A stretch of 36,831 nucleotides of DNA from Promethearchaeota archaeon (GCA_048939245.1 JBHLPR010000021.1:1-36831); one strand, 5' to 3'. Shown: positions 3,962-27,079, numbered from the stretch's first letter. Notes: generated by a model not told the origin, from the letters alone. Translations and numbers: made by a program.

Positions 3962-5224
3962 CTAGTTTCCTCCACGGGGATCAGTAATTTGTCCTGCAAT
4001 AGCACTTGCCGCTACCGTTGCTGGTGATGCAAGATAGATTTGGGCTTTGGGACTGCCCATGCGACCAGGAAAATTCCGGTTTGTTGTACTGATACATACT
4101 TCATCTGGAGCAAGTAAGCCAAAATGGCCACCAAAACATGCCCCACATGTCGCTGGTCCGATTGTTGCTCCCGCTTTCACGAGTGTGCTAATTATTCCGT
4201 TTTTAAGAGCGATCTGATAAATTTTCCGACTTGCAGGGTTTACGATGAATCGAACCCCATCAGCCACCTGTTTTCCAGACATTATTTGAGCTGCAACCCG
4301 AAGGTCTTCTAATCGTCCATTAGTACACGATCCGAGATAGGCTTGATCAATGGGTTGTCCTGCCACCTCTGAAACAGGAACCGCTTGGGTCGGTAATGAT
4401 GGGGTTGCGACCTGTGGGGTAAGTGTAGAAATATCTAATTCAAGGGTTTGGTGATAATTGGCTGTCTCATCAGGATAAACAGGTGTGAATTTGTGTTGAC
4501 TTTGGTTTTTGATATAGTCGATGCTACGTTTATTTGGGGGAATTAACGCCGCCATGGCTCCTACTTCTACGGCCATATTGGTGAGGGTCATCCAGGCGTC
4601 TAAGCTTAATTTTGACAATGTTTTTCCATGGTATTCGATTGCTTGAAATGCTGCTCCCTCCACGCCGAGTTGCCCGAGAGTATGAAGGATGATGTCTTTT
4701 CCCATTATCATGGGAGGAATATTGCCAGAATATGTAATTTTTAGGGTGTCAGGGACACGGAACCATAATTGCCCGGTCGCGAGGACAATTGCCATATCGG
4801 TTGCTCCTATTCCTGTTGCTAAGGCTCCAAAGGCACCTGCTGTAGTTGTGTGCGAGTCGGTGCCGACTACTAATTCACCGGGTCGGATGTGTCCCTCTTC
4901 GACAAGAACTTGATGGCATATTCCTTGGCCCACATCATAGAAGTGTTCAATTTGATATTTTTTTACGAATTCACGGACCTGCTGGTGGATGGTAGCAATT
5001 TCGATCGTAGGCGCTGGGGCCCAATGATCTAAAATCATTACGACTCGGCTGGGATCCCAAACTTTGCTAACATCGGCTTGGTCTAAAAGTGGGAGAATGC
5101 GGCTTCCCATCATCTCATGAGACATTGCCACATCAATGGACGCTTCAATGATTTCTCCTGGTTCTATCGCTTTCTTATCAGTGTGGTTGAGCAAAATTTT
5201 CTCAGCCATGGTTTTTCCTGTCAT
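3962..5224 (-). CDS. leuC: 3-isopropylmalate dehydratase/homoaconitase large subunit (archaeal LeuC/HacA type)
   Basis: DH, GICHQV, GTDSHTTTAGA, GSCTNGRLEDL, CGACFG, STTNRNFPGRMG and YLASP aconitase-family motifs. Confidence 0.93.
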   Translation of the reverse strand: MTGKTMAEKILLNHTDKKAIEPGEIIEASIDVAMSHEMMGSRILPLLDQADVSKVWDPSRVVMILDHWAPAPTIEIATIHQQVREFVKKYQIEHFYDVGQGICHQVLVEEGHIRPGELVVGTDSHTTTAGAFGALATGIGATDMAIVLATGQLWFRVPDTLKITYSGNIPPMIMGKDIILHTLGQLGVEGAAFQAIEYHGKTLSKLSLDAWMTLTNMAVEVGAMAALIPPNKRSIDYIKNQSQHKFTPVYPDETANYHQTLELDISTLTPQVATPSLPTQAVPVSEVAGQPIDQAYLGSCTNGRLEDLRVAAQIMSGKQVADGVRFIVNPASRKIYQIALKNGIISTLVKAGATIGPATCGACFGGHFGLLAPDEVCISTTNRNFPGRMGSPKAQIYLASPATVAASAIAGQITDPRGGN

Positions 5225-13871: not shown

Positions 13872-14036
13872 CTGTAGTAACTAGAAAGGTGCTAGACCAA
13901 TCCTCAAATGGAAATTGCAACGGTAAAATATAAAGATATATCTTCCGGCTTTTAAGGCTAGGATTGTCAGCACGAGCTACACACTTTTAAGCGGGGTTCA
14001 TAACTAGTCGCCTCACCAAATTCAAGGCTGATATTC

Positions 14037-15311
14037 ATGGTCGATTTTGCCCTTTCGAAACGTGAACAGGAACTTCTTGACACTGCTATGGCCTTTTCCA
14101 AGAAGTGGATTGTGCCTTATGCCCGGGAACTCGAAGAAGCGGATGAGTTTCCTTGGGAACTCGCTCAGAAGGCTTTTGATGTGGGGCTCATGAACTCTCA
14201 TATCCCCAAAGAATATGGTGGACCCGCGCACTCGATGGTCGAAGAAACTCTCATCGGAGAAGGCATTGGTTACGGCGATGGCGGAATTGCCACCACCATC
14301 TTAGCCAATAACTTGGCACTCACGCCTCTTCTGATTACTGCGACTCCTGAGCAAATGAAGAAATATATTAAACCGTTCGCCACAGGGAAGAAACCTCAAT
14401 TTGCTTCCTTTTGTCTCACCGAACGTGAAGCTGGATCTGATGCTGCAGCGGTGAAAACCACGGCCACTAAAGATGGAGATGAGTGGGTTATCAATGGACG
14501 CAAATGCTTCAGCACCAATGGGCATGTCGCAAAATATCTGAGTGTATTCACAACTGTAGATCCCTCGTTGGGTTACAAGGGAATGGCTTTGCACATGGTG
14601 GAAAAAGACCTACCCGGCGTCGAGGTCGTCATGCTGGAAGACAAGCTTGGGCAACGAGCGTCCTTTCAAGCAGAAATTGAATTCAAGGATGTCCGTATTC
14701 CCGGTGATTGTCTCTTTGGCGAACTCGGTAAGGGCTTTAAATATGCTATGCAAACTCTTGACCGCACCCGTGCTGCCATCGCCGCCCTCGGTGTCGGTAT
14801 CGCCCAACGCGCCGTTGATGAAGCGGCGATTTTTGCTAACCATCGCAAGCAGTTTGGCAAACCAATCGGGGCATACCAGGGCATCAACTTTATGATTGCT
14901 GAAATGGAAGCCCGGGCTATGCACGCCCGGTGGGCAACGCGATATTCAGCGTGGCTTGTTGATCAGGGGCAAAGAAATACTAAGGAGTCGAGTTGTGCCA
15001 AATTCTTTGCAACCGATGCGGCTATGCAGAATACCTTAGATTGTATCCAAATTATGGGCGGTTATGGGTATTCCAAGGAATATCCAGCTGAACAGATGAT
15101 GCGTGGTGCGAAGCTCACTCAAATCTATGAAGGAACAAACGAGATTCAACGCTGGGTGGCGGGACAAGCCGTCTTGAAGGAGGCAAGAGTAACCGAACTG
15201 GATACCGGCTTTCGGCTCACGTTTTCGGGAAATGATTATCCGGATCCTTGGGGACCTCGTGAAGGTAAAGTGCCTGACTTATGGGGCAAGAAGAAATTAA
15301 AATCGAAATGA
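14037..15311 (+). CDS. Acyl-CoA dehydrogenase
   Basis: FCLTEREAGSD, WVINGRKCFSTNG, KLGQR, RKQFGKPIG, QIMGGYGYSKEYP, IYEGTNEIQR. Confidence 0.95.
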   Translation: MVDFALSKREQELLDTAMAFSKKWIVPYARELEEADEFPWELAQKAFDVGLMNSHIPKEYGGPAHSMVEETLIGEGIGYGDGGIATTILANNLALTPLLITATPEQMKKYIKPFATGKKPQFASFCLTEREAGSDAAAVKTTATKDGDEWVINGRKCFSTNGHVAKYLSVFTTVDPSLGYKGMALHMVEKDLPGVEVVMLEDKLGQRASFQAEIEFKDVRIPGDCLFGELGKGFKYAMQTLDRTRAAIAALGVGIAQRAVDEAAIFANHRKQFGKPIGAYQGINFMIAEMEARAMHARWATRYSAWLVDQGQRNTKESSCAKFFATDAAMQNTLDCIQIMGGYGYSKEYPAEQMMRGAKLTQIYEGTNEIQRWVAGQAVLKEARVTELDTGFRLTFSGNDYPDPWGPREGKVPDLWGKKKLKSK

Positions 15312-15427
15312 GAACCTCGATTCCAATTAACGTCGATTCTCCCTCTAATTAAAATAAAAAGATGGAGCCGACATCCACAATTTCTGGTGTCGACTCGATT
15401 AGAAGCTCTGCGGTTAGGGGGTGTTTC

Positions 15428-16393
15428 TTACTCCTTCTTCCTTCGACGTTCCTGCTGTACGGGAGCTGGTTGATTGGCACCAACCAGACCTGCAAGCCCC
15501 ATGATTTCGCCTCTAACCATATCCATGGGGATAGCAAAGACGATGGTATTACTTTGGTCGAAGCTGATATCCTCGAGGCTAGAAAGGGTTCGTAGGTAAA
15601 GTGCTTGTGTGCTCATCTTTTGGACCGCTTCTTCGAGGTTTTGAGCAGCTATGAGTTCACCTTCACTTTTAATGATGACGGCTCGACGTTCTCGTTCTGC
15701 TTCAGCTTGGCGGGCGATGACACGTTTCATGTCCGCCGGCAGTTCGATATTTTGCAGATTGACGCTGATGATATCTACGCCCCAATCCTGCACGTCTTTG
15801 TCAACTTGGAGCTTTATCCGTTCAGCGATTTGATCACGTTTTGCCAGGAGGTCATCGAGTTCCACATTACCAATTACATCGCGCATGGTGGTCTGTGCAT
15901 ATTGCACGGTGCTCAGTCTGACATCTTGGATATTGATGAGGCTTTTTGGTGTGTTGATGACTTTCATGAACACCACGGCATCAATCATGAGGCTGATGTT
16001 GTCTCGGGTCATCAGCTCCTGCTTCATCACATCCAGAGTCTGAATTCTGATATCCTGTCGGAGGAATCTTTCTACTGCAGGCCATTTGAAGAAGATTCCA
16101 GGTCCAACCAATCGGACGAATTTTCCGAAGCGCAAGACTATAGCTTCTTGCCATTGCTTGTTGATGGCAATGGTTGCAGGAACCATTATTAAGAATAGCA
16201 CTGCGAAAAATCCAAAGACGAAGGGGAAAACGATAGCGATGAAGCCGAGCATTGGTCCTAGAATTGGTATCGCGAATATTGCTAGAATGATAAATAGTAT
16301 TCCAAGGAATAAGAATGTAAATAACGGAAGCGGGGAGCCTCTATATTCATACATTCGTCGTTCTTCTTTGTCAGTAAGGGGGTCTTCTCCCAT
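15428..16393 (-). CDS. SPFH/band-7 (stomatin-like) membrane protein
   Basis: N-terminal TM hairpin, VLRFGKF..GPG, TRDNISLMIDAV, AQTTMRDVIG, RQAEAERERRA. Confidence 0.92.
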   Translation of the reverse strand: MGEDPLTDKEERRMYEYRGSPLPLFTFLFLGILFIILAIFAIPILGPMLGFIAIVFPFVFGFFAVLFLIMVPATIAINKQWQEAIVLRFGKFVRLVGPGIFFKWPAVERFLRQDIRIQTLDVMKQELMTRDNISLMIDAVVFMKVINTPKSLINIQDVRLSTVQYAQTTMRDVIGNVELDDLLAKRDQIAERIKLQVDKDVQDWGVDIISVNLQNIELPADMKRVIARQAEAERERRAVIIKSEGELIAAQNLEEAVQKMSTQALYLRTLSSLEDISFDQSNTIVFAIPMDMVRGEIMGLAGLVGANQPAPVQQERRRKKE

Positions 16394-16690
16394 GTTTTTT
16401 CACCATTGATAACCTATAACGCTCAATTGCTACTCGCGAATCTATGATTTAATTCCATGATTGGATAACAATTGACTACGTTATGGGCTTGAGGAATTAT
16501 TCTGTAATGGGACTATACGTTAATGAGCTAAATAAGCGTCATCTATGACGGTTCACTTGTAAGGTGTAGAATCCCACGCCAGGTTTGAATATCCCTCGTA
16601 CTAGACAGCACGAGTTCAGGCTTTTAAAATTAATGAGATTCTGCATAATCGTAGAAAGATGCGACGGGCTCCGCTTCATGCTTGGGGTGA

Positions 16691-16871
16691 TTAAAACAAT
16701 TGGTTAAAGATCAGCATAAAGAAGCCAATAATTGAAAAAAACGCTGTAAATACACCCCCTATCCACACAGCTGCAAATGACCCTAGACTGAAATTAATTA
16801 GTGTTACTGCTGCACTAAGACTTCCAAGAAAAACAAGCTCTTGCCAATTAAATGTGCCTCTCCAGTTTCAT
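16691..16871 (-). pseudogene. Frameshifted small membrane-protein gene
   Basis: 58 hydrophobic sense codons (NWRGTFNWQELVFLGSLSAAVTLINFSLGSFAAVWIGGVFTAFFSIIGFFMLIFNQLF*). The ATG at 16869-16871 is one base out of frame. Confidence 0.35.
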
Positions 16872-16924
16872 ACTCTTCACATCGATGCCTTTAGAGCTCA
16901 TCCTATTTTGGTAGAGCTTTCTTG

Positions 16925-16952
16925 TTCTGGAAAATGCTATTATGACACTTTT
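16925..16952 (+). repeat. dif-like direct repeat, copy 1 (TTCTGGAAAATGCTATTATGACACTTTT)
   Basis: 25/28 identical to 17813-17840. Confidence 0.7.
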
Positions 16953-17083
16953 GGGTCGGCGGACCCAACACATGCCGACATCGAACTGAGCAGAGACTAC
17001 TACCCATCATTTACAACATGCACGTGCTATTCACAAAGGCACTGCAAAGAATCTAGCTGTTCTAAACCGTAGATTCATAATTC

Positions 17084-17761
17084 ATGAAGGAAACACGTTA
17101 TTCGCAGGTTTGTATTTTGAAACTTGAGCCGGATAAAATTAAGACTGGAAACAGACAGCAACGCACAGCTTTTGCTAAAAAGATACCAACATGGATTTTC
17201 CTCATAATCCTTAGCACGATTATTCTATGCTACAACTGCAGCACAGCATTCTTAGCAAACCTCACATATCTCCCCCCAACTTTGTATAACCGAGTATACG
17301 ATTGCATGACCCTTGAAGGAGCAGGGGCTGCAGTCCTTGTTGGGATGTTCATCCTTTACCCCCCACAACTTTTCATGGCAACCATCCGGGGTCTTTTCCT
17401 GGGGGGAGTAGAGGGTGCCCTCTGTGGAATACTCGTAGCAATCTACTGCAGTTCAACCCGGCGACAGTTCCCCCTCCTCGGAGCCGTCGTGGGCAGCATC
17501 AGTGGAATGACCCTTGGCACCACCATCCTTCCCCTTTCTATGCGACTCAGCCTCACCACCTCTGCTACCCACTTCTTTGACCTCTATGCACTCGGAGGCA
17601 TCCACACCATTGAGATTGGCTGCCAGTACGGTGCCTATTCCCTTGCCCTCCTCTACACCAGCTACCTACCAATCCTCTTTCTCCTCAGCCTCATCGCCAT
17701 TGTTGGCACCGTACTCCTCCGCTTCATTGCAAATGCCATCAGCCACGTGGCCACGGACTAA
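17084..17761 (+). CDS. Hypothetical membrane protein lying between repeat copies 1 and 2
   Basis: 225-aa ORF with about 5 hydrophobic Gly-rich helices and a strongly C-rich 3' half. Confidence 0.7.
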   Translation: MKETRYSQVCILKLEPDKIKTGNRQQRTAFAKKIPTWIFLIILSTIILCYNCSTAFLANLTYLPPTLYNRVYDCMTLEGAGAAVLVGMFILYPPQLFMATIRGLFLGGVEGALCGILVAIYCSSTRRQFPLLGAVVGSISGMTLGTTILPLSMRLSLTTSATHFFDLYALGGIHTIEIGCQYGAYSLALLYTSYLPILFLLSLIAIVGTVLLRFIANAISHVATD

Positions 17762-17812
17762 AAGAGTCAAGAACCACCCACAAGCAAGCCCTAATTGATA
17801 ACAGTTCGTTTT

Positions 17813-17846
17813 TTCTGGATAAAGATATTATGACACTTTTTGCATG
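17813..17846 (+). repeat. dif-like direct repeat, copy 2 (TTCTGGATAAAGATATTATGACACTTTTTGCATG)
   Basis: Matches copy 1 over 28 bp and copy 3 over TATTnTGACACTTTT(T)GCATG. Confidence 0.7.
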
Positions 17847-18111
17847 GCGCAACTAGCACGGGTCTGCTATTAGATAAGGGGTAGAGGAGGCTCTGTATTC
17901 CCTAGCGAGGTTGCGTATGGTCGGTAGTATCGGGAGAATGTGAAGTTGGAGGGTCGGTAGTTGTTTCAAAATACACTTGTAAAGCTTCTTTTTTTAGATC
18001 AGTTTGAGAGGGTATTGCACTTTTCATCATCTTCATGGGCGCCAGATTGTCCGTAGGGATCGCTAGCGGTTACTATTGCCAAAGAGAAGAATAGAAAATT
18101 ACCGAGGATTT

Positions 18112-18504
18112 CTAAGGTCCTTCTATCTGGATGTTAAGCAGTTCAAGTTGTCTTATAAGACGTTGGGGTAAGTCGGGAGTAATGAGTTTTTCTTGGTCAT
18201 AGTCTTCAATTTCTTTAATACCACGAGAATATAAGTAAAGTCCGAGGTCAACACCAATCCCATTGATTTCTCTAGCAATAGGAAGGTTTTCTTCGGTTGC
18301 TTTTTCTAAGAATTGCGAATCTAAAGCCTTAGCAATTGATTTAGAGATTTCCAATTCATCTGTTGGGCGTCTGCATAACTTCGATATCTCTTTAGTATCA
18401 ATACTTCTCAAGTCTTCCAATGTAGTTACACCATGTTTTGCGAGTATGCTAGCTGTCGATTGGCCAATTCCCCAAATCTTTTTGAAATTTTTACGAGACT
18501 CGAT
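18112..18504 (-). CDS. Helix-hairpin-helix (HhH) DNA-binding domain protein
   Basis: Frame is open upstream of TTG 18420 as far as 18510. Two HhH-like motifs, IWGIGQSTASILAKHGV and INGIGVDLGLYLYSRGI. Start codon uncertain (ATC 18504 proposed). Confidence 0.65.
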   Translation of the reverse strand: MESRKNFKKIWGIGQSTASILAKHGVTTLEDLRSIDTKEISKLCRRPTDELEISKSIAKALDSQFLEKATEENLPIAREINGIGVDLGLYLYSRGIKEIEDYDQEKLITPDLPQRLIRQLELLNIQIEGP

Positions 18505-18635
18505 TTTCGTTCACTTCCTTTTGATAAGGATTTGTAAACACAAAAATCAGTGAAGAATAATTAGATGAATCTTCACCATTCCTAATCCTCAGCTAATTTA
18601 GTAATTTTCTTCAAGAAAAATCTTTTGGGTCTTTC

Positions 18636-18663
18636 ATGATTCTTCACCATTACGAAGAATCAT
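18636..18663. promoter_or_regulatory. Perfect inverted repeat ATGATTCTTC-N8-GAAGAATCAT
   Basis: Seen directly, intergenic and upstream of the HhH gene. Function is inferred. Confidence 0.35.
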
Positions 18664-18751
18664 AATGGTCCTTATCGCAATGGTGTATGCTTCGAGATTT
18701 TTTTTAAAAAAATGAATCGAACTGATAAGTTTGACAAGGTTGAAATGTTTT

Positions 18752-19171
18752 TCAAGAACTTTCTTCCTTAGTATGAATCTTCGTTAATCCGAAGAATCCT
18801 CCGAGAATAGCTAGGATTGCACCTAGAAACAAGATTACACACCCTACACAAACAAAGAACACTAGAACGGCAGGAATAGAAAAAATAATAATCTTGACAC
18901 TGCCGATTCGTGATTTTCTTTTGATTTGGACTGCTATAGCGATTATCACTAAACTCCCACATGTTAACGCCACAGCCATAGTTACAATCATTCCGTTCAA
19001 TAAATTAATCAAAATTTGGGCTAAATCAGGAGGCAGTAATGGTAATAAGGCTAATCCAACAAAGAATAATCTAGCAACGAAAAACTGTGATACAAACATT
19101 ATAATGCCTCCGATAACTGAAAGTATTCTAGAAGCGATTTGCAATGAGTCACTTCTCAACTTTTTTCTCAC
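18752..19171 (-). CDS. Cationic multi-TM membrane protein (candidate immunity protein)
   Basis: 139 aa, 3-4 TM helices, K/R clusters. 4-nt overlap with the upstream gene. Confidence 0.65.
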   Translation of the reverse strand: MRKKLRSDSLQIASRILSVIGGIIMFVSQFFVARLFFVGLALLPLLPPDLAQILINLLNGMIVTMAVALTCGSLVIIAIAVQIKRKSRIGSVKIIIFSIPAVLVFFVCVGCVILFLGAILAILGGFFGLTKIHTKEESS

Positions 19172-19764
19172 TCCCCTTTATCATTTTTTGAATAAAATGC
19201 TATAACTAAAATTACAATTATGATAACACTTCCTAAAATTAAACTGGATCCGAGAAAAGGCACATAATGTACGCCTGTAGTTGGTTCGAAATTAATGGAA
19301 AAGAAATGGTGAGGACCCAGTCTGCTGTTGTGGTTAGAAGATGCATCTGTAGCAGAGAACTGAATATAATAGGCATCACCATCTTGCACAAATCCTATGT
19401 TATATGAAAAAGTCACGTTATCTGTTGATGCCATAGTACGATTTGTGGTAACGAACTGGTAGTTTTCATCATTTAACATGCGTACTCTGCAATAAACCAC
19501 AGCAATACCAGACTCGTCTCGAATAATTGCCCAAGCAGTTACGTTATCTCCAGCTTCCGGAACCTCTGGAGTAATCCAAGAATTTTCAAATATTGGAGGT
19601 TCTAAATCTCCGTTATTACCCCTCTCACTTATATAACAACTTTCTATCGAATAATTTAGTTGAGATGACTTGATAACACTGAGTAGTAGAATTATGTATA
19701 ATATAATAACTAAAGTGTTGAGAACCCGTATTCTTCTATTCCAATGAAGTATCATACCTCCCAC
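19168..19764 (-). CDS. Membrane-anchored protein with extracellular Ig-like domain
   Basis: N-terminal TM helix, beta-rich DLEPP...GDNVT...DESGI...YYIQFSATD domain, C-terminal TM helix. Confidence 0.7.
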   Translation of the reverse strand: MGGMILHWNRRIRVLNTLVIILYIILLLSVIKSSQLNYSIESCYISERGNNGDLEPPIFENSWITPEVPEAGDNVTAWAIIRDESGIAVVYCRVRMLNDENYQFVTTNRTMASTDNVTFSYNIGFVQDGDAYYIQFSATDASSNHNSRLGPHHFFSINFEPTTGVHYVPFLGSSLILGSVIIIVILVIAFYSKNDKGE

Positions 19765-19781
19765 CTAAATCAACCTTTTTA

Positions 19782-19800
19782 CTAACCAGGTTAGCTAACC
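19782..19800. promoter_or_regulatory. Overlapping palindromes CTAACC-A-GGTTAG-CTAACC (operator-like)
   Basis: Lies between a TATA-like TTTTAATATAT (minus strand, about 19810-19820) and the 19764 start. Confidence 0.35.
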
Positions 19801-19816
19801 AATTGTTGGATATATT

Positions 19817-19846
19817 AAAAAAGGAGCCTATAAAAATAGGCTCCTT
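19817..19846 (-). terminator. Hairpin terminator after the peptide-precursor gene
   Basis: Perfect 11-bp stem AAGGAGCCTAT/ATAGGCTCCTT with a 4-nt loop, running into a U-tract on the minus strand, 9 nt after the stop at 19856. Confidence 0.75.
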
Positions 19847-19855
19847 CTTATTTTT

Positions 19856-20203
19856 TTAGATTAGTAATGGTAGTTCAATGAATATATCGTATACTGTGAG
19901 TAATATTAGCAAACACTCTGGAGCGAGTACACCAGTCAAGAGACAAGCACCCACGATGATGAGTAAAATAGCACCATCAATGCCTGAAACTATTAGAACC
20001 CAATTAAACCATTCCTCGAATGACATCTGGCCAGTAAGAACATATTGCATATATGTTAGGATGATCCATCGACTACCATGGGTATTTTGACCTTGAATGG
20101 TTTGATCCTGGGGAGTTGACTTGTAAGTTGCTGCAATCATAGGGGTGATGATTAACCCAACAATGGTAATTACTGTAAGTAACCGATAGTGTCCCCTTTT
20201 CAT
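19856..20203 (-). CDS. Secreted hydrophobic peptide; putative bacteriocin/archaeocin-like precursor
   Basis: Perfect GGAGGTGA RBS (20208-20215). Signal-peptide-like residues 1-25, polar spacer, hydrophobic core of about 70 aa. Divergent from SpoIIM and Yip1 genes. Confidence 0.6.
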   Translation of the reverse strand: MKRGHYRLLTVITIVGLIITPMIAATYKSTPQDQTIQGQNTHGSRWIILTYMQYVLTGQMSFEEWFNWVLIVSGIDGAILLIIVGACLLTGVLAPECLLILLTVYDIFIELPLLI

Positions 20204-20360
20204 CCATTCACCTCCGATATTTGAATTATTTAATTTATTATTTGATTTTATTTAAAGACTTTCATCCCTGAATCTAACGATTAATTTAATTTCTATCCTT
20301 TTTTTAGGAAACTTTCTTAACATTATAAATGCACATAACATCAGAGGAGAAGGAAGTCTC

Positions 20361-21023
20361 TTGACAAATTATAGAAATAATTGTCTCGATACAATCTTTG
20401 TAGAAAACCATACACAACTATTATCGAATAGAAATAAACAAGTAACCAATAATAAAGAAGTTGACACACCTAAACCTTCTTCAGCATTTTGGATTTTATC
20501 ATTTTTAATTGTAGTTGTTGCTTATATTAGTGGAATTATAATTGGGTGGTTTACCCCCCTCCCCTATCTATCCGACAATGAGCCTAATAATTCCTGGTTC
20601 TCTCCCTTATTCCTCTTCTCATACATTTTGAGATCAAATATCACATTCGTTATAATAATTTTAATATTAGGTGTTTTGACATTTGGAGTGGGAATTATCA
20701 TTAATCTTTGGTTACAGGGTTTCATCAACATTTTAGTTATACGTTTAGCCTTACAAGTAGCACCACTCCATATGGTTCTTGTTTCCTTTTTCCCTCATGC
20801 AATAGTCGAAATCACAGCCATTCTTTGGTCTGCTGCAATCGGATTGTATTTACCGCTTCAGCTAATTCGATATCTCTTTGGGTATAGAAGCAGAATTCTA
20901 ATACACAACGAGCCTCGCCAAATAGTTATATCTATTCCGATTATTTTGATCTTGCTTGTAATTGCAGCTTTCATTGAAAGTTTTGTAACACCTCAGCTGA
21001 TGGGGGTATTATCCATTGTCTGA
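20361..21023 (+). CDS. Stage II sporulation protein M (SpoIIM/DUF95) family membrane protein
   Basis: ILRSN, FPHAIVEITA and LLVIAAFIESFVTP family motifs; about 5 TM helices. Confidence 0.88.
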   Translation: MTNYRNNCLDTIFVENHTQLLSNRNKQVTNNKEVDTPKPSSAFWILSFLIVVVAYISGIIIGWFTPLPYLSDNEPNNSWFSPLFLFSYILRSNITFVIIILILGVLTFGVGIIINLWLQGFINILVIRLALQVAPLHMVLVSFFPHAIVEITAILWSAAIGLYLPLQLIRYLFGYRSRILIHNEPRQIVISIPIILILLVIAAFIESFVTPQLMGVLSIV

Positions 21024-21561
21024 TTCACTGAAGTTATTAATTCATCCACTCAATCCACCCAAGAAAATAGTGACGTCTCCAAATCCATTTGTTTCTTTCG
21101 GCACGGTATTGACCACAGGATTCGTTAGCATTCTGATGAATATGCTCACATTAATTTGGCTTGAACCCTGGATTTTTGAGATTCCATTCATTCTATTTCT
21201 TGGAGGCCTTGTTGCTATTTTCTCATATCTCATAGTTTTTTTAATTATTTCTACTATTAGTTATTTAATAGCCAAATCGTTTAATGGAAAAGCTGATTAC
21301 AGAATTCATTTGCTTGCACTCGGATACACTTGGTTTTTTAGAATTCTAGTAGTATTGGCTATTCTAATTGTAAATTTGATTATTCCTACATTTATAATTC
21401 TAATCATATTCATTACGGTATTATTAAAAACAGTATTTTTTATTCCTGCGAGTTCGGTATGTCGGTATGTAAATAATATTAAATGGAAACCTGCATTAAT
21501 TAGTGTTATTCTACCAGATTTAATTTTATTTTTTGGAGGAATTTGGCTTTCGATATTATAA
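21016..21561 (+). CDS. Yip1-domain membrane protein
   Basis: N-terminal LLIHP and YLIAKSFNGKADY...LGY pattern; about 5 TM helices. 8-nt overlap with the SpoIIM gene. Confidence 0.75.
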   Translation: MSDSLKLLIHPLNPPKKIVTSPNPFVSFGTVLTTGFVSILMNMLTLIWLEPWIFEIPFILFLGGLVAIFSYLIVFLIISTISYLIAKSFNGKADYRIHLLALGYTWFFRILVVLAILIVNLIIPTFIILIIFITVLLKTVFFIPASSVCRYVNNIKWKPALISVILPDLILFFGGIWLSIL

Positions 21562-21685
21562 CGAAACCTAATGTTGATAGTATACTTTGATTGAAACCGC
21601 ATTAGAATTTAAAATTAATTTTAAAAAACAATTAAAAGAAAGTTCTAATATGTTCTAAATAGAAAAAACCAGAGAGAATAAATAC

Positions 21686-21913
21686 ATGTCACAGAGAAAA
21701 GCTGGAATAGTAGCAAAAGAAATTAGTCGCTGGTACTTTCTTGGATTTTTCATTTGGATTGCAATAATATTTTTTCTCATTTGTTACGCAGGAGGTTGTG
21801 ACAACATATCTCCAGAATTTACGTTTGCAATTATGTTTCTATTTGGATCGATTGGAATTGGTGCATTGATATTATATTCGGTGCAGGTCCTTAGAAAGAC
21901 CAATAACCAGTAA
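21686..21913 (+). CDS. Small two-TM membrane protein
   Basis: 75 aa, basic termini, two hydrophobic helices. Confidence 0.6.
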   Translation: MSQRKAGIVAKEISRWYFLGFFIWIAIIFFLICYAGGCDNISPEFTFAIMFLFGSIGIGALILYSVQVLRKTNNQ

Positions 21914-22203
21914 AGAACTTTTATAATTCAAGAGTGCCATTCTATTTACCAAAAAATCAAAGGTGAAATGAAGATAAAGGCCAAATTCAAGCCAAATAAA
22001 AATTCACTGTTAACTCGAATGACCCAAAACATGAAACTAGGGAATCTATAAATCTTCTTGGGAGATTTCTCGAAAAATTGAGGAGGCCTTTCTGCCTTCA
22101 CTCTATCTTATTCATTAATTTTATTAATTTGGATTAAGAAAGAATAATTCCCATCACGGTGGTCTTTTACAAACTCCCCGTTATCATCGAATAAAGACTA
22201 CAA

Positions 22204-22482
22204 TTATTCTGAAGACCGTAAGTTTTTTCTAAAAAAATAAAGGAGAGTGACAAAGGCGAAAATGAGGATAACTAAATGAACCGAGAGTGCCAGAATTAAT
22301 TGTTGGAAAAATATGGAATCGGAGGGAAAAATACCAAAGATCTGATTAACGATTAGGAATGTAATAAAGCTGGACAATAAGATTATGGGGGTTAGCGTTA
22401 CAATCAAAGCTATGCTAAGCCCTTTCCGTGATGGCTTTATCTCTGAATCACTACTACTCACAAGCATTTTCACTAATATCAT
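22204..22482 (-). CDS. Small two-TM membrane protein
   Basis: 92 aa, two hydrophobic helices, basic C-terminus. Confidence 0.6.
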   Translation of the reverse strand: MILVKMLVSSSDSEIKPSRKGLSIALIVTLTPIILLSSFITFLIVNQIFGIFPSDSIFFQQLILALSVHLVILIFAFVTLLYFFRKNLRSSE

Positions 22483-22544
22483 AAATTTAATTAACTATTT
22501 AAAAGCTGCTTTCCTATGGTAAAAGACTGGATTGGACAATAGAA

Positions 22545-22778
22545 GTGTGGGAAAAATTACACGAAGATCAAATCCTGCATTTGTTCAATACGACTTATGA
22601 TATTGTCCAAATGCCTGATGTTCGGAGTCGAGATTTTGAAACAGCAATGGTGCTTCATCCTGAGAAGGGATATATTGGCTATCTAATTAAGAAAAATAGT
22701 CGTTTCTTTTTCTTGGATGAATTACGGATTCAAGATGTTTTTCAGGAGTGGTTTGCATCTCTTAGGGAGACTCCGTGA
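22545..22778 (+). CDS. Small hypothetical protein or gene fragment
   Basis: Protein-like 77-aa ORF. Frame extends to 22503 without an ATG/GTG/TTG, so it may be 5'-truncated. Confidence 0.4.
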   Translation: MWEKLHEDQILHLFNTTYDIVQMPDVRSRDFETAMVLHPEKGYIGYLIKKNSRFFFLDELRIQDVFQEWFASLRETP

Positions 22779-22862
22779 AGATATCCAATGATAGAGAATA
22801 AAAAATCTATATTAAGTAAATGCAGGATTTTAGAGATGCGTTCTGCTTCCCATATAAAGTCA

Positions 22863-23295
22863 ATGGAATCCAAAAAACATTTGGATTAAAATTATAATCG
22901 AGTTATTTCAAGCTTTATTGAGCTTTATGAATCCATATTCACGAGATTGGGGAACTCTTTGTCTCATAGTAGGAATCATCGTCATTCCATTTGCTTTCAT
23001 CTTTTAGTATCCCGCTTTGTTATTAGCATTCATCACCCTGTTAAACAGCAATATTGAACAAGCGTTGGGATTTTGGCAGAACCTTCTGGAGGTCCAGATA
23101 GCTCTTATCACAATGTTGGGGATACTTTTAGGATTTTCAGGAGTAATTGTATTCTATCAGATGCGAAGGTATGATCAATTCCTTTTCTTGGCCTTGAATC
23201 AACAAAGGGCATCTCAGGTTGTACTTGATTTAGGAGCCCGTGAGCTACTTGAAGGAATGTTTGAAGGAGAAACATTTCATCTTCCAGAAAAATAG
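22863..23295 (+). pseudogene. Disrupted membrane-protein gene
   Basis: Hydrophobic frame 22858-23295 interrupted by TAG at 23005-23007. ATG 22863 joins this frame only if one A is removed from the A6 run. Confidence 0.45.
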
Positions 23296-23817
23296 ATCTA
23301 TCTTTTTGAGATGCCTACCAACTAGATGGCTACACAAAAGATAGAAATCTCCTCCGGTTTGCCATAGATGTGTAGATGGACTTCTGCTCAGACCACTTGA
23401 TTAATGCCGATTTGAACCACTTCCCTTTAGGCAAACCTTAGCTGCTAAATCAAAGTTGTTTGGTTACATCTTTGAAAGTGAAGATAGCCGTCCGAGAGTC
23501 CCGGGTACTATTTTCGGTCCTGATTCATTTCATTTTTGAAAACGGTATGATATTAAGTGAGAACGTCTTCATTGAGCGAGTTTTTATTGAATTTGTGGAA
23601 GCCCTTGTCCATGTAGGGATAGATCTGGTTCCGATAATCTCACGTGAGGTTACGGATCGTCTTGAATTAGTAGCATTTGAACCTGTTAGAGGTTGATTTA
23701 ATCTCGACGATTTTAAGATTAGGGGAGCTCGGAATTTGAATAAACTACTCATAAACTGGTAATTGATAAAGGGCTAATTGAAGTTTTTAATAAGGAAAGT
23801 GAAGCATACTCTGATGA

Positions 23818-24069
23818 GTTGCCAGTTGTTGCTATCATCTCCCTCATGAATTGTCAACCGTTGTTGAGGCGATTTGTGTTCTGGCAACCGATACATTAAC
23901 CGATGATATAGTTAAGGGATATATCCGATATCTAACTATTACCAGAAGGCGATTAGCACCTATTGGCGCCTCTTCTATTGATGGTAACTGAGGAGATAGA
24001 GAATATTATAAGCTCGCCTTCTCTAAGGGTTGTCAACTGGAACCGTGGCGAACTTGTCCTGACAACCGA
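23818..24069. repeat. Degenerate intergenic repeat array (RTTRYCA ... TGRYAACYGA, three units)
   Basis: Half-sites at 23818, 23850, 23881, 23938, 23981, 24029 and 24059. Confidence 0.4.
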
Positions 24070-24133
24070 AGTGCTAAGCGAATGCAGCACCTGTGCAGCA
24101 ACTAAAATTCGCATGAAATAAGAGGAATCGGGC

Positions 24134-24174
24134 TATTCTGACACTTTTGCATGTTATTGTGACACTTTTTGGCA
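24134..24174 (+). repeat. dif-like repeat, copies 3 and 4 (tandem right halves)
   Basis: TATTCTGACACTTTTGCATG (24134-24153) and TATTGTGACACTTTTTGGCA (24155-24174). Confidence 0.65.
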
Positions 24175-24214
24175 GAATACAATGGTTATTGCTTAATCTG
24201 GATAAATATTCAGT

Positions 24215-25216
24215 TCATGCTTCCGAATCATCGATTTGTAAATATGGATACTCTGGATCTAATTGTAGGACCCGTTGAAAACACTCTTGGGCTTCTTGTG
24301 GGCGTTTAAGCTCGATGAGGATACGTCCTCGGAGGTATATTCCATTGACATGGTCAGGGCTAGTTTTGAGGAGTCGATCGACAATATCGAGGGCTTCCTC
24401 AAACCGCTTCAAGTCACGTGCCAGAGTATTTCCAAGATTATAAAGTGTAAGTGCGTCATGTGGATTGATCATAGCTGCCTGCAAATATGCTTCAACTGCT
24501 TCATCATATTTTTGCAGCATGCCCAATCCAACACCTTTGTCATACCACGCTCGACTATTTTGGGGTTCAAGACTGATGACGCGCTGAAAGATACGTAACG
24601 CTTCCTCAACCCGTCCCATTCTCCCAAGGAGTTCACCCATATCGAGCCAGGCATCAATATGCTCTGGGGCGAGTTTAGTAGCTTTCTTGTAACAGGTTAG
24701 TGCGTCCTTAAGTTGTGTTAGCTGTTCGTGAAGGACACCCCGATTATACCAGGCTCGGGCATCTCCAGGGTTTACGTTAAGTGTTTCAATGAAACAATCA
24801 AGAGCTTCCTCATATCGTTTGAGTTCCGAAAGAATAACACCCCGGTTATACCATGCATTCGCATAATCCAGACGATTTTTCGTCCGGGTTCGTGTGGCTC
24901 TAATAAAGCTCTGTAATGCTTCTTCAGTTCGATTCAATTCTTGATATGCTGCACCTAAATTGTTCCACGCTTCGATATAATTAGAATCAAGTTCAGTTGC
25001 ATGTTTGTAACAATCGAGCGCTTCATTGATGCGTCCAAGCTCATCAAGAGCAAGTCCTTTGTTAAACCAAACAGCTGCATCCCGTGGACGGAGTTCTGCT
25101 GTGATTGAAAACGCCTCTAAAGCTTCCTCTAATTGACCTTTTTCAGCCAAATCTACACCTAAATTAAACCAATCTTCAGCGGTGAAATTTGGTTTACTCC
25201 GTTTCTTCTTTGACAA
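24215..25216 (-). CDS. Tetratricopeptide-repeat protein
   Basis: About 8-9 tandem 34-aa repeats of the form AWYNRG..L..L.RYEEAL..F..AL.L.P. Confidence 0.93.
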   Translation of the reverse strand: MSKKKRSKPNFTAEDWFNLGVDLAEKGQLEEALEAFSITAELRPRDAAVWFNKGLALDELGRINEALDCYKHATELDSNYIEAWNNLGAAYQELNRTEEALQSFIRATRTRTKNRLDYANAWYNRGVILSELKRYEEALDCFIETLNVNPGDARAWYNRGVLHEQLTQLKDALTCYKKATKLAPEHIDAWLDMGELLGRMGRVEEALRIFQRVISLEPQNSRAWYDKGVGLGMLQKYDEAVEAYLQAAMINPHDALTLYNLGNTLARDLKRFEEALDIVDRLLKTSPDHVNGIYLRGRILIELKRPQEAQECFQRVLQLDPEYPYLQIDDSEA

Positions 25217-25220
25217 ATAC

Positions 25221-25586
25221 TCACCCTGGTGCTTGAAGTATTTGCATCATCAGCTGGCCTAAGGGCACAGATTCGTGAGCGGCACCAATAATAATGAGCT
25301 CCCATTTTTTTATCAAGTCTCGGAATGACGCTTGTCCGGTGAAGAGATTCATCAGTGTTTTCGTCGATGCTTTGTATATGACTTCAGGGGAGGGATAGCT
25401 TCCTGAATGTAATTCCATCGTTCCTTGTTTTTGCAATACGATATGAAAGATCTCCCCATCAGTTTCCACTTGGAGCACTTTTCCTTGGTACGGACCTACC
25501 CAGTTTCGGATGAAAACTCGGTGTTCAGGTGTTTTGTTAACCTTAGCAATTAATCCTTGAAAAATCTGAATTAACGGGTTTGTCAT
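25221..25586 (-). CDS. SCP2 (sterol-carrier/lipid-binding)-like small protein
   Basis: FHIVLQKQGTMELHSG...PEVIYKAS..TLMNLFTG......IKKWELIIIG pattern resembles the SCP2 fold. Confidence 0.6.
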   Translation of the reverse strand: MTNPLIQIFQGLIAKVNKTPEHRVFIRNWVGPYQGKVLQVETDGEIFHIVLQKQGTMELHSGSYPSPEVIYKASTKTLMNLFTGQASFRDLIKKWELIIIGAAHESVPLGQLMMQILQAPG

Positions 25587-25603
25587 TTATCTCACCTAGC
25601 AAG

Positions 25604-25873
25604 TTATTTTTTCTTTATCCAGGCCTGCACCGCTTCCATTACAGCATCGTTTACGTGCCGTGCTCGAATATCTCCCTTTCTTTCTCGCACCTTTACCAGA
25701 AAGTTCTGGTATAACTCGTGATCCATCAAGACCACCATGCGACCTTTGCGATTATTCACCAAGGCTTGGGTGATGTACTTATTTTCACGAATCATTAGGG
25801 TTTCAATATCTCGTAACTGTAGGTGTGGATATCCGGGCCATTGTCCATCTGACGCTTTCTTATATCGTGGCAT
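25604..25873 (-). CDS. Small protein with C-terminal ribbon-helix-helix-like segment
   Basis: MVVLMDHELYQNF...VNDAVMEAVQAWI; tight operon spacing. Confidence 0.6.
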   Translation of the reverse strand: MPRYKKASDGQWPGYPHLQLRDIETLMIRENKYITQALVNNRKGRMVVLMDHELYQNFLVKVRERKGDIRARHVNDAVMEAVQAWIKKK

Positions 25874-25886
25874 CTGTTATTCCTCC

Positions 25887-26153
25887 TTAATTCGAATCTT
25901 TTTTTCCTTCATCGATTGATTGGTCTCCAGGAATTTTAACCAATCCCGGTTGAAAAGGCCATTCCACCACATACCGCATTCCTTTTTTTCCTCCCCGATT
26001 TCCTCGTCGCCAAGTGCCCACGTAGATGCCACTTCCAAATACTCGGATATATTCTGATAAGATCAAGATTGCTGCTACTTCCGGGCTGATATTTGCTTCC
26101 CTCGCTTTTTCCTCGAGTCCCTTTTGAATATCCTCAGGTATTTGTAATTCCAT
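25887..26153 (-). CDS. Small protein with N-terminal ribbon-helix-helix-like segment
   Basis: MELQIPEDIQKGLEEKAREANISPEVAAILILSEYI; tight operon spacing. Confidence 0.62.
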   Translation of the reverse strand: MELQIPEDIQKGLEEKAREANISPEVAAILILSEYIRVFGSGIYVGTWRRGNRGGKKGMRYVVEWPFQPGLVKIPGDQSIDEGKKDSN

Positions 26154-26159
26154 CTTTCT

Positions 26160-26960
26160 TCACCTTTTCTTCTTGCGCTGCTTCTTTTTGGTTTGTGTGC
26201 TTTTCTGATGTCGAAATGCTAATCGTTGGTAAGGAGTTCCCCATCGCTCTGCATAAAAACTACCTTCCAATGGCCACCGTGAAGGACCAAGCATACGCGG
26301 CTTTTCTGGAACCCCTATACAGAAAGCCGCAATTGGTGTCCAAGTGCGTGGAATCCCTATTTTATCACAGATAAATTCGACATGGCGCTTATCTGCGAAG
26401 GCTACGGCTTGATAGGCACAGGCGTATCCCATCGAGTGAGCAACCAGCCACATATTCATAACCCCCATACCTATGACTACACTCCCACAGAGTTCATTGG
26501 GATACCTCCCCGTGCTATCATGCCAGGTTTCAGAAGCGCAACAAACAATAACAGCATCTGCCTTTTCGGGGTACCGAAATAATGATCCATCTCGCATTTC
26601 CTCATATATGCCTGGGCGGCTGGCATCAGGCACATACCATAATCGACCTTGTGTCGATTCATACGGAAAATTACCAAAAACATATCGTGCGGCTTCTTGG
26701 CTGATATCGGCAATGATGCGTTTCATTTCTTCATCCTCCCGGATGAGTATATAACGCCACATCTGCATATTCTCTGGAGATGGCGCATAGCGTGCCGCAT
26801 CTAAGATTAGTTCTAAATCCTGGTCAGGAATTCGTTCCCCCGTCATATGCCGCATACTTCGACGCATTCGAATCAATTCGACGAGTTGCCCCGTCGATTG
26901 GGTGATGTTAGGCATGTCCACAGTATTACCGGATCGGTTTTTCTGTTTAGATTCAGTCAT
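26160..26960 (-). CDS. Nitroreductase family flavoprotein
   Basis: RRSMR, ILDAARYAPSPENMQMWRYILI, NMWLVAHSMGY. Confidence 0.9.
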   Translation of the reverse strand: MTESKQKNRSGNTVDMPNITQSTGQLVELIRMRRSMRHMTGERIPDQDLELILDAARYAPSPENMQMWRYILIREDEEMKRIIADISQEAARYVFGNFPYESTQGRLWYVPDASRPGIYEEMRDGSLFRYPEKADAVIVCCASETWHDSTGRYPNELCGSVVIGMGVMNMWLVAHSMGYACAYQAVAFADKRHVEFICDKIGIPRTWTPIAAFCIGVPEKPRMLGPSRWPLEGSFYAERWGTPYQRLAFRHQKSTQTKKKQRKKKR

Positions 26961-27079
26961 GGAATTCTCACCATTCTATCTTCTATCGGATGGTATTCTA
27001 GTGATATTAAATGGTATTATCGCTGTTCGAATACAGCTTCTTACATTGAAAGTTAGTGCAAATTATTGATAAAATGCAG

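Follow-up and report, generated by a model that had tools for sequence, protein, structure and literature searches.

The analysed window is a 36,831-nucleotide (nt) stretch of DNA from a Promethearchaeota archaeon (GCA_048939245.1 JBHLPR010000021.1:1-36831), in which positions 18752-22482 hold a cluster built around two adjoining genes, one for a SpoIIM/DUF95 family membrane protein and one for a Yip1-like membrane protein. They are accompanied by five small genes, whose products of 139, 198, 115, 75 and 92 amino acids (aa) have no match in Pfam, NCBIfam, PHROGs or PADLOC. We classify the locus as a highly diverged member of the archaeal Yip1-SpoIIM cassette that lacks ATP-binding cassette (ABC) genes and lies on a species-specific insertion, and consider this classification well supported. 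An earlier reading of this DNA (hereafter, the original prediction) had placed seven open reading frames (ORFs) here and interpreted them as a circular-bacteriocin-like gene cluster. All seven ORFs were found as stated, but the picture was incomplete, since it omitted both the repeat-bounded insertion and prior descriptions of such cassettes in archaea (PMC4158269, PMC5898192). A true actin encoded in the same genome (432 bits) agrees with the Asgard assignment of the host.

The SpoIIM and Yip1-like gene pair

The SpoIIM gene (20361-21023, plus strand) encodes 220 aa that match PF01944 over the full domain (76.1 bits, E-value 4e-21), in line with the family originally proposed. The protein keeps N93, H146, E150 and E206, polar residues that are invariant across 40 relatives. 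In an exhaustive HMMER search of 1.8 billion representative proteins its closest relatives showed 26-38% identity (best E-value 4e-14), and Methanosarcina mazei, Archaeoglobus veneficus and a Halobaculum metagenome-assembled genome (MAG) are among the best relatives with named organisms. A word-based homologue search returned the query itself only. No relative was found on IMG/VR viral contigs, and a scan of JGI metagenomes with the window's SpoIIM found none.

The following gene (21016-21561, plus strand; 181 aa) overlaps the SpoIIM ORF by 8 nt, an arrangement that probably reflects translational coupling, and Shine-Dalgarno sites were found ahead of the genes. The proposed Yip1 identity of its product stays below the Pfam cut-off (16.2 bits compared with 28.6), but the match extends over the full length of the model (6-171 of 173). 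Two further lines point the same way: Yip1 makes up 25 of the 30 ESM-Atlas clusters nearest to it (score 0.94, with 207-211 features in common), and in a profile alignment the F-N-G-K..Y-R...G-Y stretch of the protein coincides with the invariant motif (F-[DN]-G-K..[FY]-R) of archaeal Yip1 proteins encoded next to SpoIIM. A genome-wide six-frame scan with PF04893 (E-values up to 1) did not list the 181-aa copy and detected two better-scoring Yip1 genes elsewhere in the genome. We accept the protein as a divergent Yip1 on these three lines, each weak but all concordant; by sequence alone the assignment is weak.

The placement of the SpoIIM protein was analyzed in a quickly built maximum-likelihood tree that comprised 78 SpoIIM proteins, taken from 80 named genome loci plus related loci, a second Asgard genome of the same phylum (G023) and Paenibacillus. 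The window's SpoIIM fell into a 15-row group that comprises all Yip1-linked archaeal SpoIIMs, the Paenibacillus protein and an actinomycete protein encoded beside an ABC_tran_2-type membrane protein (support of 89 in the Shimodaira-Hasegawa-like approximate likelihood ratio test, SH-aLRT, with the Paenibacillus row included). Because of a warning of long-branch attraction, the tree was rebuilt after removal of two long-branch rows and thinning of the large clades; the window's protein and the 12 remaining linked SpoIIMs then lay on one side of a branch with an SH-aLRT of 98.5, a value that, like the first, comes from a quick tree with a long window branch and a sample drawn around an A. veneficus-type query. 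Eight of the 12 grouped SpoIIMs have an adjoining Yip1 gene and most have ABC exporters. The group of the window's SpoIIM spans Archaeoglobi, Methanococci, Methanosarcina, Thermococcus and another Asgard genome. Among the 63 SpoIIM loci outside it, 14 hydrophobic neighbours (140-300 aa, within 2.5 kb) were collected, and none of the 14 is a Yip1. The membership of the window's SpoIIM in the clade linked to Yip1 and small ORFs is supported in both trees. We take the locus to be an ABC-less member of the archaeal cassette of Yip1, SpoIIM and small membrane proteins because its SpoIIM groups with those linked to Yip1, small peptides and ABC exporters.

Makarova et al. reported this cassette from archaeal 'dark matter islands' as a combination of arCOG01996 (DUF95/COG1300), arCOG02054 (Yip1) and arCOG09673-like small membrane proteins, often with SalXY-type ABC transporters and S-layer proteins nearby, in Archaeoglobi, Methanococci and Thermococci (PMC4158269, PMC5898192). 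The locus resembles it in having a SpoIIM paralogue adjoining Yip1, fast-evolving orphan small membrane proteins (one with about three hydrophobic segments), an anchored surface protein nearby, a variable-island location, and a SpoIIM clade with Archaeoglobi, Methanococci and Thermococcus members. In contrast to the three euryarchaeal lineages described, the host is an Asgard archaeon; there is no SalXY/MacB-type ABC exporter near the window's genes, the partners have diverged beyond detectable homology, and the candidate peptide gene is divergent rather than located just upstream of SpoIIM. The assignment was made by SpoIIM clade, Yip1 evidence and gene content: the locus has a SpoIIM of the Yip1-linked type, an adjoining Yip1 (weak by sequence alone) and small orphan membrane proteins. 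As for optional companions, no ABC or AAA+ gene was detected in the island by the family scan or the ABC hidden Markov model (HMM), and the 198-aa protein occupies a similar anchored-protein slot, though homology to the CARDB proteins encoded at related loci is not detectable.

The AT-rich insertion and its boundaries

The G+C content is 0.31-0.37 across 18-23 kb as compared with 0.42-0.51 in the rest of the window, so the AT-rich island of the original prediction is borne out. According to the G+C profile and the comparison with congeners, it is an accessory insertion (cassette 2; 17826-24169 including the bounding repeats) of 6.3 kb (17826-24134) with direct repeats at both ends. The SPFH gene (15428-16393) and the TPR gene (24215-25216) that flank it are separated by 7.8 kb here versus 250-1200 bp in all eight same-genus genomes compared, where the island is absent and the two genes adjoin. 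Homology to the same-genus genomes stops near 16632 and restarts near 24226. SpoIIM was not found in the 14 same-genus and four same-family genomes searched (72-91% complete).

The direct repeats of about 20 nt share the core TATTNTGACACTTTT. A motif search located the first copy at 16938-16952 (plus strand) and further copies at 17826-17840, 24134-24148 and 24155-24169, all four on the same strand; these are the only exact matches in the 2.5-Mb assembly. Copies 1 and 2 are alike over about 50 nt at 76% identity. The copies delimit two units between genes that are adjacent in congeners, namely an 888-bp unit of normal G+C that encodes a 225-aa membrane protein and the 6.3-kb AT-rich unit that carries the SpoIIM and Yip1-like genes. 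At the empty sites of relatives the motif was not found, even with up to four mismatches allowed. No integrase, recombinase or other mobile-element gene was seen in the island in the family, PHROGs and PADLOC scans; Rfam gave no match in 15500-25500, and there are no tRNA genes in the window.

Three further observations concern the insertion and its flanking genes. An intergenic stretch upstream of the SPFH gene (16489-16632) is 72-86% conserved in same-genus genomes, and its end coincides exactly with the start of the insertion; it has no Rfam or tRNA match and is possibly a promoter, a leader or else a not yet annotated small RNA used as an integration target. The left end of the island encodes a 102-aa acidic ORF (18112-18420, minus strand) with a helix-hairpin-helix-like G-I-G-V-D-L-G stretch and without a family match, possibly what is left of a gene for a DNA-binding protein that belonged to the inserted element. 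The TPR orthologues of two congeners (G014:C5:67764-68753 and G009:C27:12905-13477) contain one in-frame TGA each in an otherwise full-length match.

Small orphan proteins and related loci

The 115-aa gene (19856-20203, minus strand) is transcribed divergently from SpoIIM, at a distance of 157 bp, and its product is a candidate client or partner of SpoIIM-Yip1. Its Shine-Dalgarno site GGAGGTGA ends 4 nt 5' of the ATG, and its stop is followed by a terminator-like 11-bp palindromic hairpin with T-runs on both sides (19821-19846, no strand assigned), so both expression signals of the original prediction were recovered. Further along the minus strand lie the gene of the 198-aa protein (19168-19764), which has an N-terminal signal or anchor, an ectodomain of about 130 aa and a C-terminal transmembrane (TM) anchor, and that of a 139-aa multi-pass membrane protein with a net charge of +9 (18752-19171); the latter gene and the 198-aa gene have 4 nt in common at the stop of the 198-aa gene. 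Of the Ig-like anchored protein originally proposed, only the hydrophobic anchors at the two ends of the 198-aa protein are confirmed. Downstream of Yip1, a 75-aa ORF on the plus strand (21686-21913) encodes two TM segments with a net charge of +3 and is immunity-protein-like by description only, and a 92-aa hydrophobic ORF of net charge +3 (22204-22482, minus strand) converges on the plus-strand genes. The 92-aa ORF has no Shine-Dalgarno site, and its status as a gene is uncertain.

In a Markov-shuffled control of the island, 0.038 ORFs of at least 115 aa were expected versus five observed. The corresponding expectations were 0.9 for at least 75 aa and 0.24 for at least 92 aa; the 75- and 92-aa genes are therefore individually weak on length, being within the chance expectation. 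The three small hydrophobic membrane proteins originally proposed (139, 75 and 92 aa) are accordingly all present as ORFs, but two of them are of a length that chance can produce. All three fit the description of small cationic hydrophobic immunity proteins and have no homologues.

In the 115-aa protein, residues 1-25 form a basic hydrophobic N-terminus, residues 26-45 a polar linker and residues 46-115 a C-terminal part that is anionic and very hydrophobic; the protein has three hydrophobic segments in total. The P-M-I-A-A at the end of the N-terminus is a plausible signal-peptidase site. The 70-aa C-terminal part has a grand average of hydropathy (GRAVY) of 1.52, with 50% I/L/V/F and 11% Gly+Ala, six acidic residues, two Cys and no Lys or Arg. 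In comparison, the verified Paenibacillus precursor described below and the archaeal candidate peptides contain 24-36% Gly+Ala and mostly have a lower GRAVY; an AT-rich codon bias may be a partial cause of this difference. A precursor role and the '3-TM small protein' slot of the Makarova cassette would suit the protein equally well.

No search connected the 115-aa protein to a circular bacteriocin. Pfam and NCBIfam at E-values up to 1 gave no match to a circular-bacteriocin model (PF09221, PF12173, TIGR03651), whereas the positive control, the Paenibacillus peptide, scored 25.6 bits on PF09221. No ESM-Atlas look-alike was found, and PDB profile searches with the 115-aa protein and with both archaeal peptide families described below matched no circular bacteriocin; the 115-aa protein matched no PDB chain at all. 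Against the M. mazei-type peptide BLASTP returned an E-value of 0.45, and against the G023 peptide nothing; hhalign with an eight-member archaeal peptide family gave an E-value of 0.28, with only the N-terminal hydrophobic stretch aligned. The single-sequence AlphaFold2 model has five helices, four of them after the linker, at low confidence (predicted local distance difference test, pLDDT, of 59.7) and is for this reason unfit to judge the closeness of the termini; Foldseek found nothing with it. The proposal that the 115-aa protein is a circular-bacteriocin-like precursor thus found no support in family matches, archaeal peptide matches or the composition of the C-terminal part.

Related loci share a recurring layout of Yip1, one or two hydrophobic ORFs (60-130 aa), a cationic ORF with 2-4 TM segments, and SpoIIM, and often add a signal-bearing, C-terminally anchored CARDB-type protein of about 470-500 aa, an ABC ATPase and an FtsX/ABC-2 permease. 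This layout was found in A. veneficus, M. mazei, Methanococci and Archaeoglobaceae MAGs, and in a Methanococci MAG the order is SpoIIM followed by Yip1, as in the window. The original prediction expected precursor-like ORFs next to archaeal SpoIIM-Yip1 pairs, and small hydrophobic ORFs of a precursor-like kind do adjoin the related pairs. Paenibacillus arenilitoris (L098) has a SpoIIM of the same type, and the 73-aa peptide of its cluster scores above the threshold of PF09221 (Bacteriocin_IId, the uberolysin-like circular bacteriocin family).

The closest Asgard parallel is a seven-gene, low-GC module in G023 (L108, G023:C73, 5287-10856), whose SpoIIM is the only one that the window's SpoIIM detected among the genomes of 40 relatives (E-value 1.8e-5). 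The module starts with a 127-aa hydrophobic ORF; SpoIIM (89 bits) and Yip1 (39 bits) come next, and then a membrane protein of 491 aa, a pair of ABC ATPases and an ABC-2 permease. Both loci are from the same phylum and have a hydrophobic ORF of about 120 aa in low-GC DNA beside overlapping SpoIIM-then-Yip1 genes. Unlike the window, G023 has a co-directional peptide gene and additionally encodes the 491-aa protein, the ATPases and the permease; neither the two peptides nor the two Yip1 proteins showed detectable pairwise similarity to each other.

Two families of peptide genes were observed beside archaeal SpoIIMs. In M. mazei, a small hydrophobic peptide (L023:937-1140) is encoded directly upstream of SpoIIM, with Yip1 adjoining. 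A conserved counterpart (54% identity over 54 aa, E-value 8e-19) lies on an archaeal metagenome contig of high G+C content, where there are two tandem copies (L025:3590-3994 and 4300-4704). This peptide type has no Pfam, NCBIfam or PDB match, and a word search returned the query alone. Its AlphaFold2 model has three helices (pLDDT 70.8); Foldseek and VIA-align gave generic helical matches or none with this model and that of the 115-aa protein. A suspected likeness of the M. mazei C-terminus to gassericin-type peptides was confirmed by no test and was dropped. The second family comprises hydrophobic, Gly/Ala-rich ORFs of 90-127 aa that adjoin SpoIIM in Archaeoglobi, Methanococci and related MAGs (L022:5413-5688, L029:1635-1946, L034:5438-5743, L036:223-543, L028:93-368, L031:122-445 and 2292-2633, and L021:646-915), including two copies in a Methanococci locus. 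A signal-like N-terminus that ends around V-G-D is common to its members. The mean pairwise identity is 33.6% in this part versus 25.6% in the remainder, so that a strongly conserved leader followed by a hypervariable core is only weakly borne out.

Genes of other kinds also lie near related cassettes. The A. veneficus locus (L022, 1523-4484) holds a transposase, an AF2212-like/PIN pair and another SpoIIM copy, which is truncated (119 aa) and accompanied by small membrane ORFs of its own, and in a metagenomic relative (L018, 1766-2234) HicAB is located directly 3' of SpoIIM. These are signs of cassette mobility and turnover.

Candidate functions of the cassette

SpoIIM/DUF95 proteins are present in all circular-bacteriocin clusters and define the class (PMC6131525, PMC13289728), and Yip1 is frequent in such clusters, for example the pumilarin-type and altitudin A/S-type ones (PMC8659200; bioRxiv 10.1101/2025.10.31.685828). 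The literature hence agrees with the original prediction that the former is a hallmark of these clusters and that the latter occurs in a subset. Basic to these clusters are a precursor, an immunity protein that is small, cationic and hydrophobic, an ABC transporter and a DUF95 protein (PMC6131525); the island has the DUF95 protein but neither a recognised precursor nor an ABC transporter. How the circular peptides are cleaved and closed is unsolved, with SpoIIM/DUF95 a suspected, unproven catalyst (PMC6131525). Archaeal circular peptides do not appear, and the word 'archaea' is absent, in the mining papers PMC7132975, PMC8534725, PMC5695211 and PMC8659200, a set that does not include the 2019 survey of archaeal antimicrobials (PMC6509191). 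The locus resembles the bacterial clusters in its order of SpoIIM/DUF95 then Yip1, its small hydrophobic ORF with own expression signals, its small cationic hydrophobic ORFs of the immunity-protein description, and a SpoIIM clade that includes a Paenibacillus cluster with a Pfam-verified precursor. In contrast to these clusters, the island lacks ABC ATPase and permease genes as well as a large CirB-like membrane protein, and its candidate, unlike circular-bacteriocin precursors, matches no precursor family, is TM-like in composition, and has two Cys, a polar linker and a Sec-type signal.

From the neighbourhood and the clade, we favour the reading, at a probability of about 45%, that the locus is a peptide-handling module for microbe-microbe conflict with the 115-aa protein as its client. 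The 6.3-kb repeat-bounded island would have been horizontally acquired, and its core would be the translationally coupled membrane pair of SpoIIM(DUF95) and Yip1-like proteins amid fast-evolving small membrane proteins. The pair may form a membrane complex that processes, escorts or confers tolerance to a small hydrophobic peptide used in microbial conflict. The divergently transcribed 115-aa protein is the best candidate client and would enter the membrane via its Sec-type N-terminus, while the cationic small membrane proteins are candidate protective partners. A species-specific, AT-rich island is as expected for conflict cargo and was counted for this reading. The archaeal Yip1-SpoIIM cassette is the putative counterpart of the bacterial circular-bacteriocin core machinery. 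A complex prediction for SpoIIM (40-row alignment) and the 115-aa protein scored 0.00, which is evidence neither way.

A number of observations weigh against the peptide-handling reading. As the original prediction had noted, ABC ATPases and proteases are missing: an HMM that found ABC ATPases in 20 other loci detected none in 14001-27000, and the family scan of the island revealed neither a protease family nor a large CirB-like membrane protein; FtsX-type permeases are encoded elsewhere in the genome. A word search among 5.8e9 proteins returned the 115-aa protein itself only, and none of the other searches detected a relative of any kind. The composition of its C-terminal part and its last two, non-amphipathic helices would fit an ordinary membrane hairpin better than a secreted peptide, and the 75- and 92-aa ORFs are possibly chance ORFs by the shuffled-sequence test. 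A Sec-type signal is found in no characterised circular bacteriocin (PMC6131525), and the describers of the cassette proposed defence or membrane remodelling, not bacteriocins (PMC4158269, PMC5898192).

The cyclic-peptide system originally inferred draws support from the SpoIIM clade and the neighbourhoods but not from the orphan 115-aa protein or the ABC-less island. Taken literally, it holds that the 115-aa precursor is Sec-exported, loses its signal and linker, and is cyclised by SpoIIM-Yip1 to an anionic hydrophobic archaeocin or self-recognition peptide of about 70 aa with no dedicated ABC pump. The clade and the Yip1 linkage are indeed common to circular-bacteriocin clusters, a core of about 70 aa is in range, and long precursors are known (132 aa in altitudin S; bioRxiv 10.1101/2025.10.31.685828). 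Group ii peptides combine hydrophobicity with a low pI, and it has been proposed that in this class a chromosomal signal peptidase cleaves the leader (PMC6131525); the 115-aa gene has its own Shine-Dalgarno site and terminator, and the low-confidence model has four helices after the linker. We nevertheless regard this version as improbable, given a protein with no family or profile similarity, a composition unlike verified and candidate precursors, an absent ABC transporter that is otherwise a basic cluster feature (PMC6131525), a model unusable for termini proximity, and two Cys where circular bacteriocins are disulfide-free (PMC6131525). A fully self-sufficient minimal system, with Sec export, trimming and head-to-tail cyclisation by SpoIIM-Yip1 on the outer face of the membrane without an ABC pump, appears highly doubtful. 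Alternatively, the locus might be the decaying remnant of a larger module of the seven-gene Asgard type that has lost its pump and peptide gene, with small ORFs that are partly spurious products of AT-rich DNA. The ABC and large TM genes are missing relative to G023, every small protein is an orphan, and two of the ORFs are within chance expectation. However, the SpoIIM is full-length with all invariant residues, its overlap with Yip1 is intact, ORFs of at least 115 aa far exceed expectation, and a strong Shine-Dalgarno site and a terminator accompany the 115-aa gene; decay is in our view rather improbable.

The remaining alternatives follow the proposals for the cassette itself, which was read in 2014 as a novel membrane-associated defence system (PMC4158269) and in 2015 as a device for membrane remodelling or vesicle formation (PMC5898192). 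Under the 2015 proposal the small proteins would be structural subunits rather than clients of the SpoIIM-Yip1 complex. Section 3.3 of PMC5898192 argues by analogy with SpoIIM in engulfment and Yip1p-Yif1p-Yos1p in vesicle budding, and the three hydrophobic segments of the 115-aa protein (like the '3-TM' arCOG09673 slot), its TM-like composition and the two better-scoring Yip1 genes elsewhere in the genome accord with this. A housekeeping role is, however, ill-suited to a species-specific, AT-rich, repeat-bounded insertion absent from the 18 same-family genomes searched, and it does not account for the repeated association with peptide-type ABC exporters and with a verified bacteriocin cluster; we consider it unlikely. 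The insertion itself, the toxin-antitoxin pairs and transposase that adjoin related cassettes, and the 2014 proposal would agree with cargo of a mobile element that shields the membrane from viruses or foreign toxins, through superinfection exclusion or as an immunity-only 'orphan' module, with no peptide made. The missing pump and missing recognisable precursor would suit such an immunity-only remnant. Yet PADLOC defence models and PHROGs gave no match apart from one marginal one, IMG/VR viral contigs hold no relative, and an integrase or other mobile-element gene was not found in the island, which makes this alternative quite unlikely. Structural remodelling, defence or immunity alone, and decay each retain appreciable weight beside the peptide-handling reading.

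If the minimal cyclising system were true, it would be the first archaeal system for a circular peptide and, of all those known, the one with the smallest set of genes, and SpoIIM (with Yip1) would be the long-sought cyclase. The window's locus is the weakest exemplar of the group because its candidate peptide is without relatives. What the locus contributes is an Asgard, pump-less example of a cassette so far described by computation only, and for euryarchaea. The wider value lies in the comparison. The Yip1-linked SpoIIM clade holds a verified bacterial bacteriocin cluster as well as cassettes with adjoining peptide genes in the cultivable M. mazei, A. veneficus and Methanococci, and one peptide family is conserved across orders. 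Since these cassettes occur in cultivable archaea, the question can be tested at the bench.

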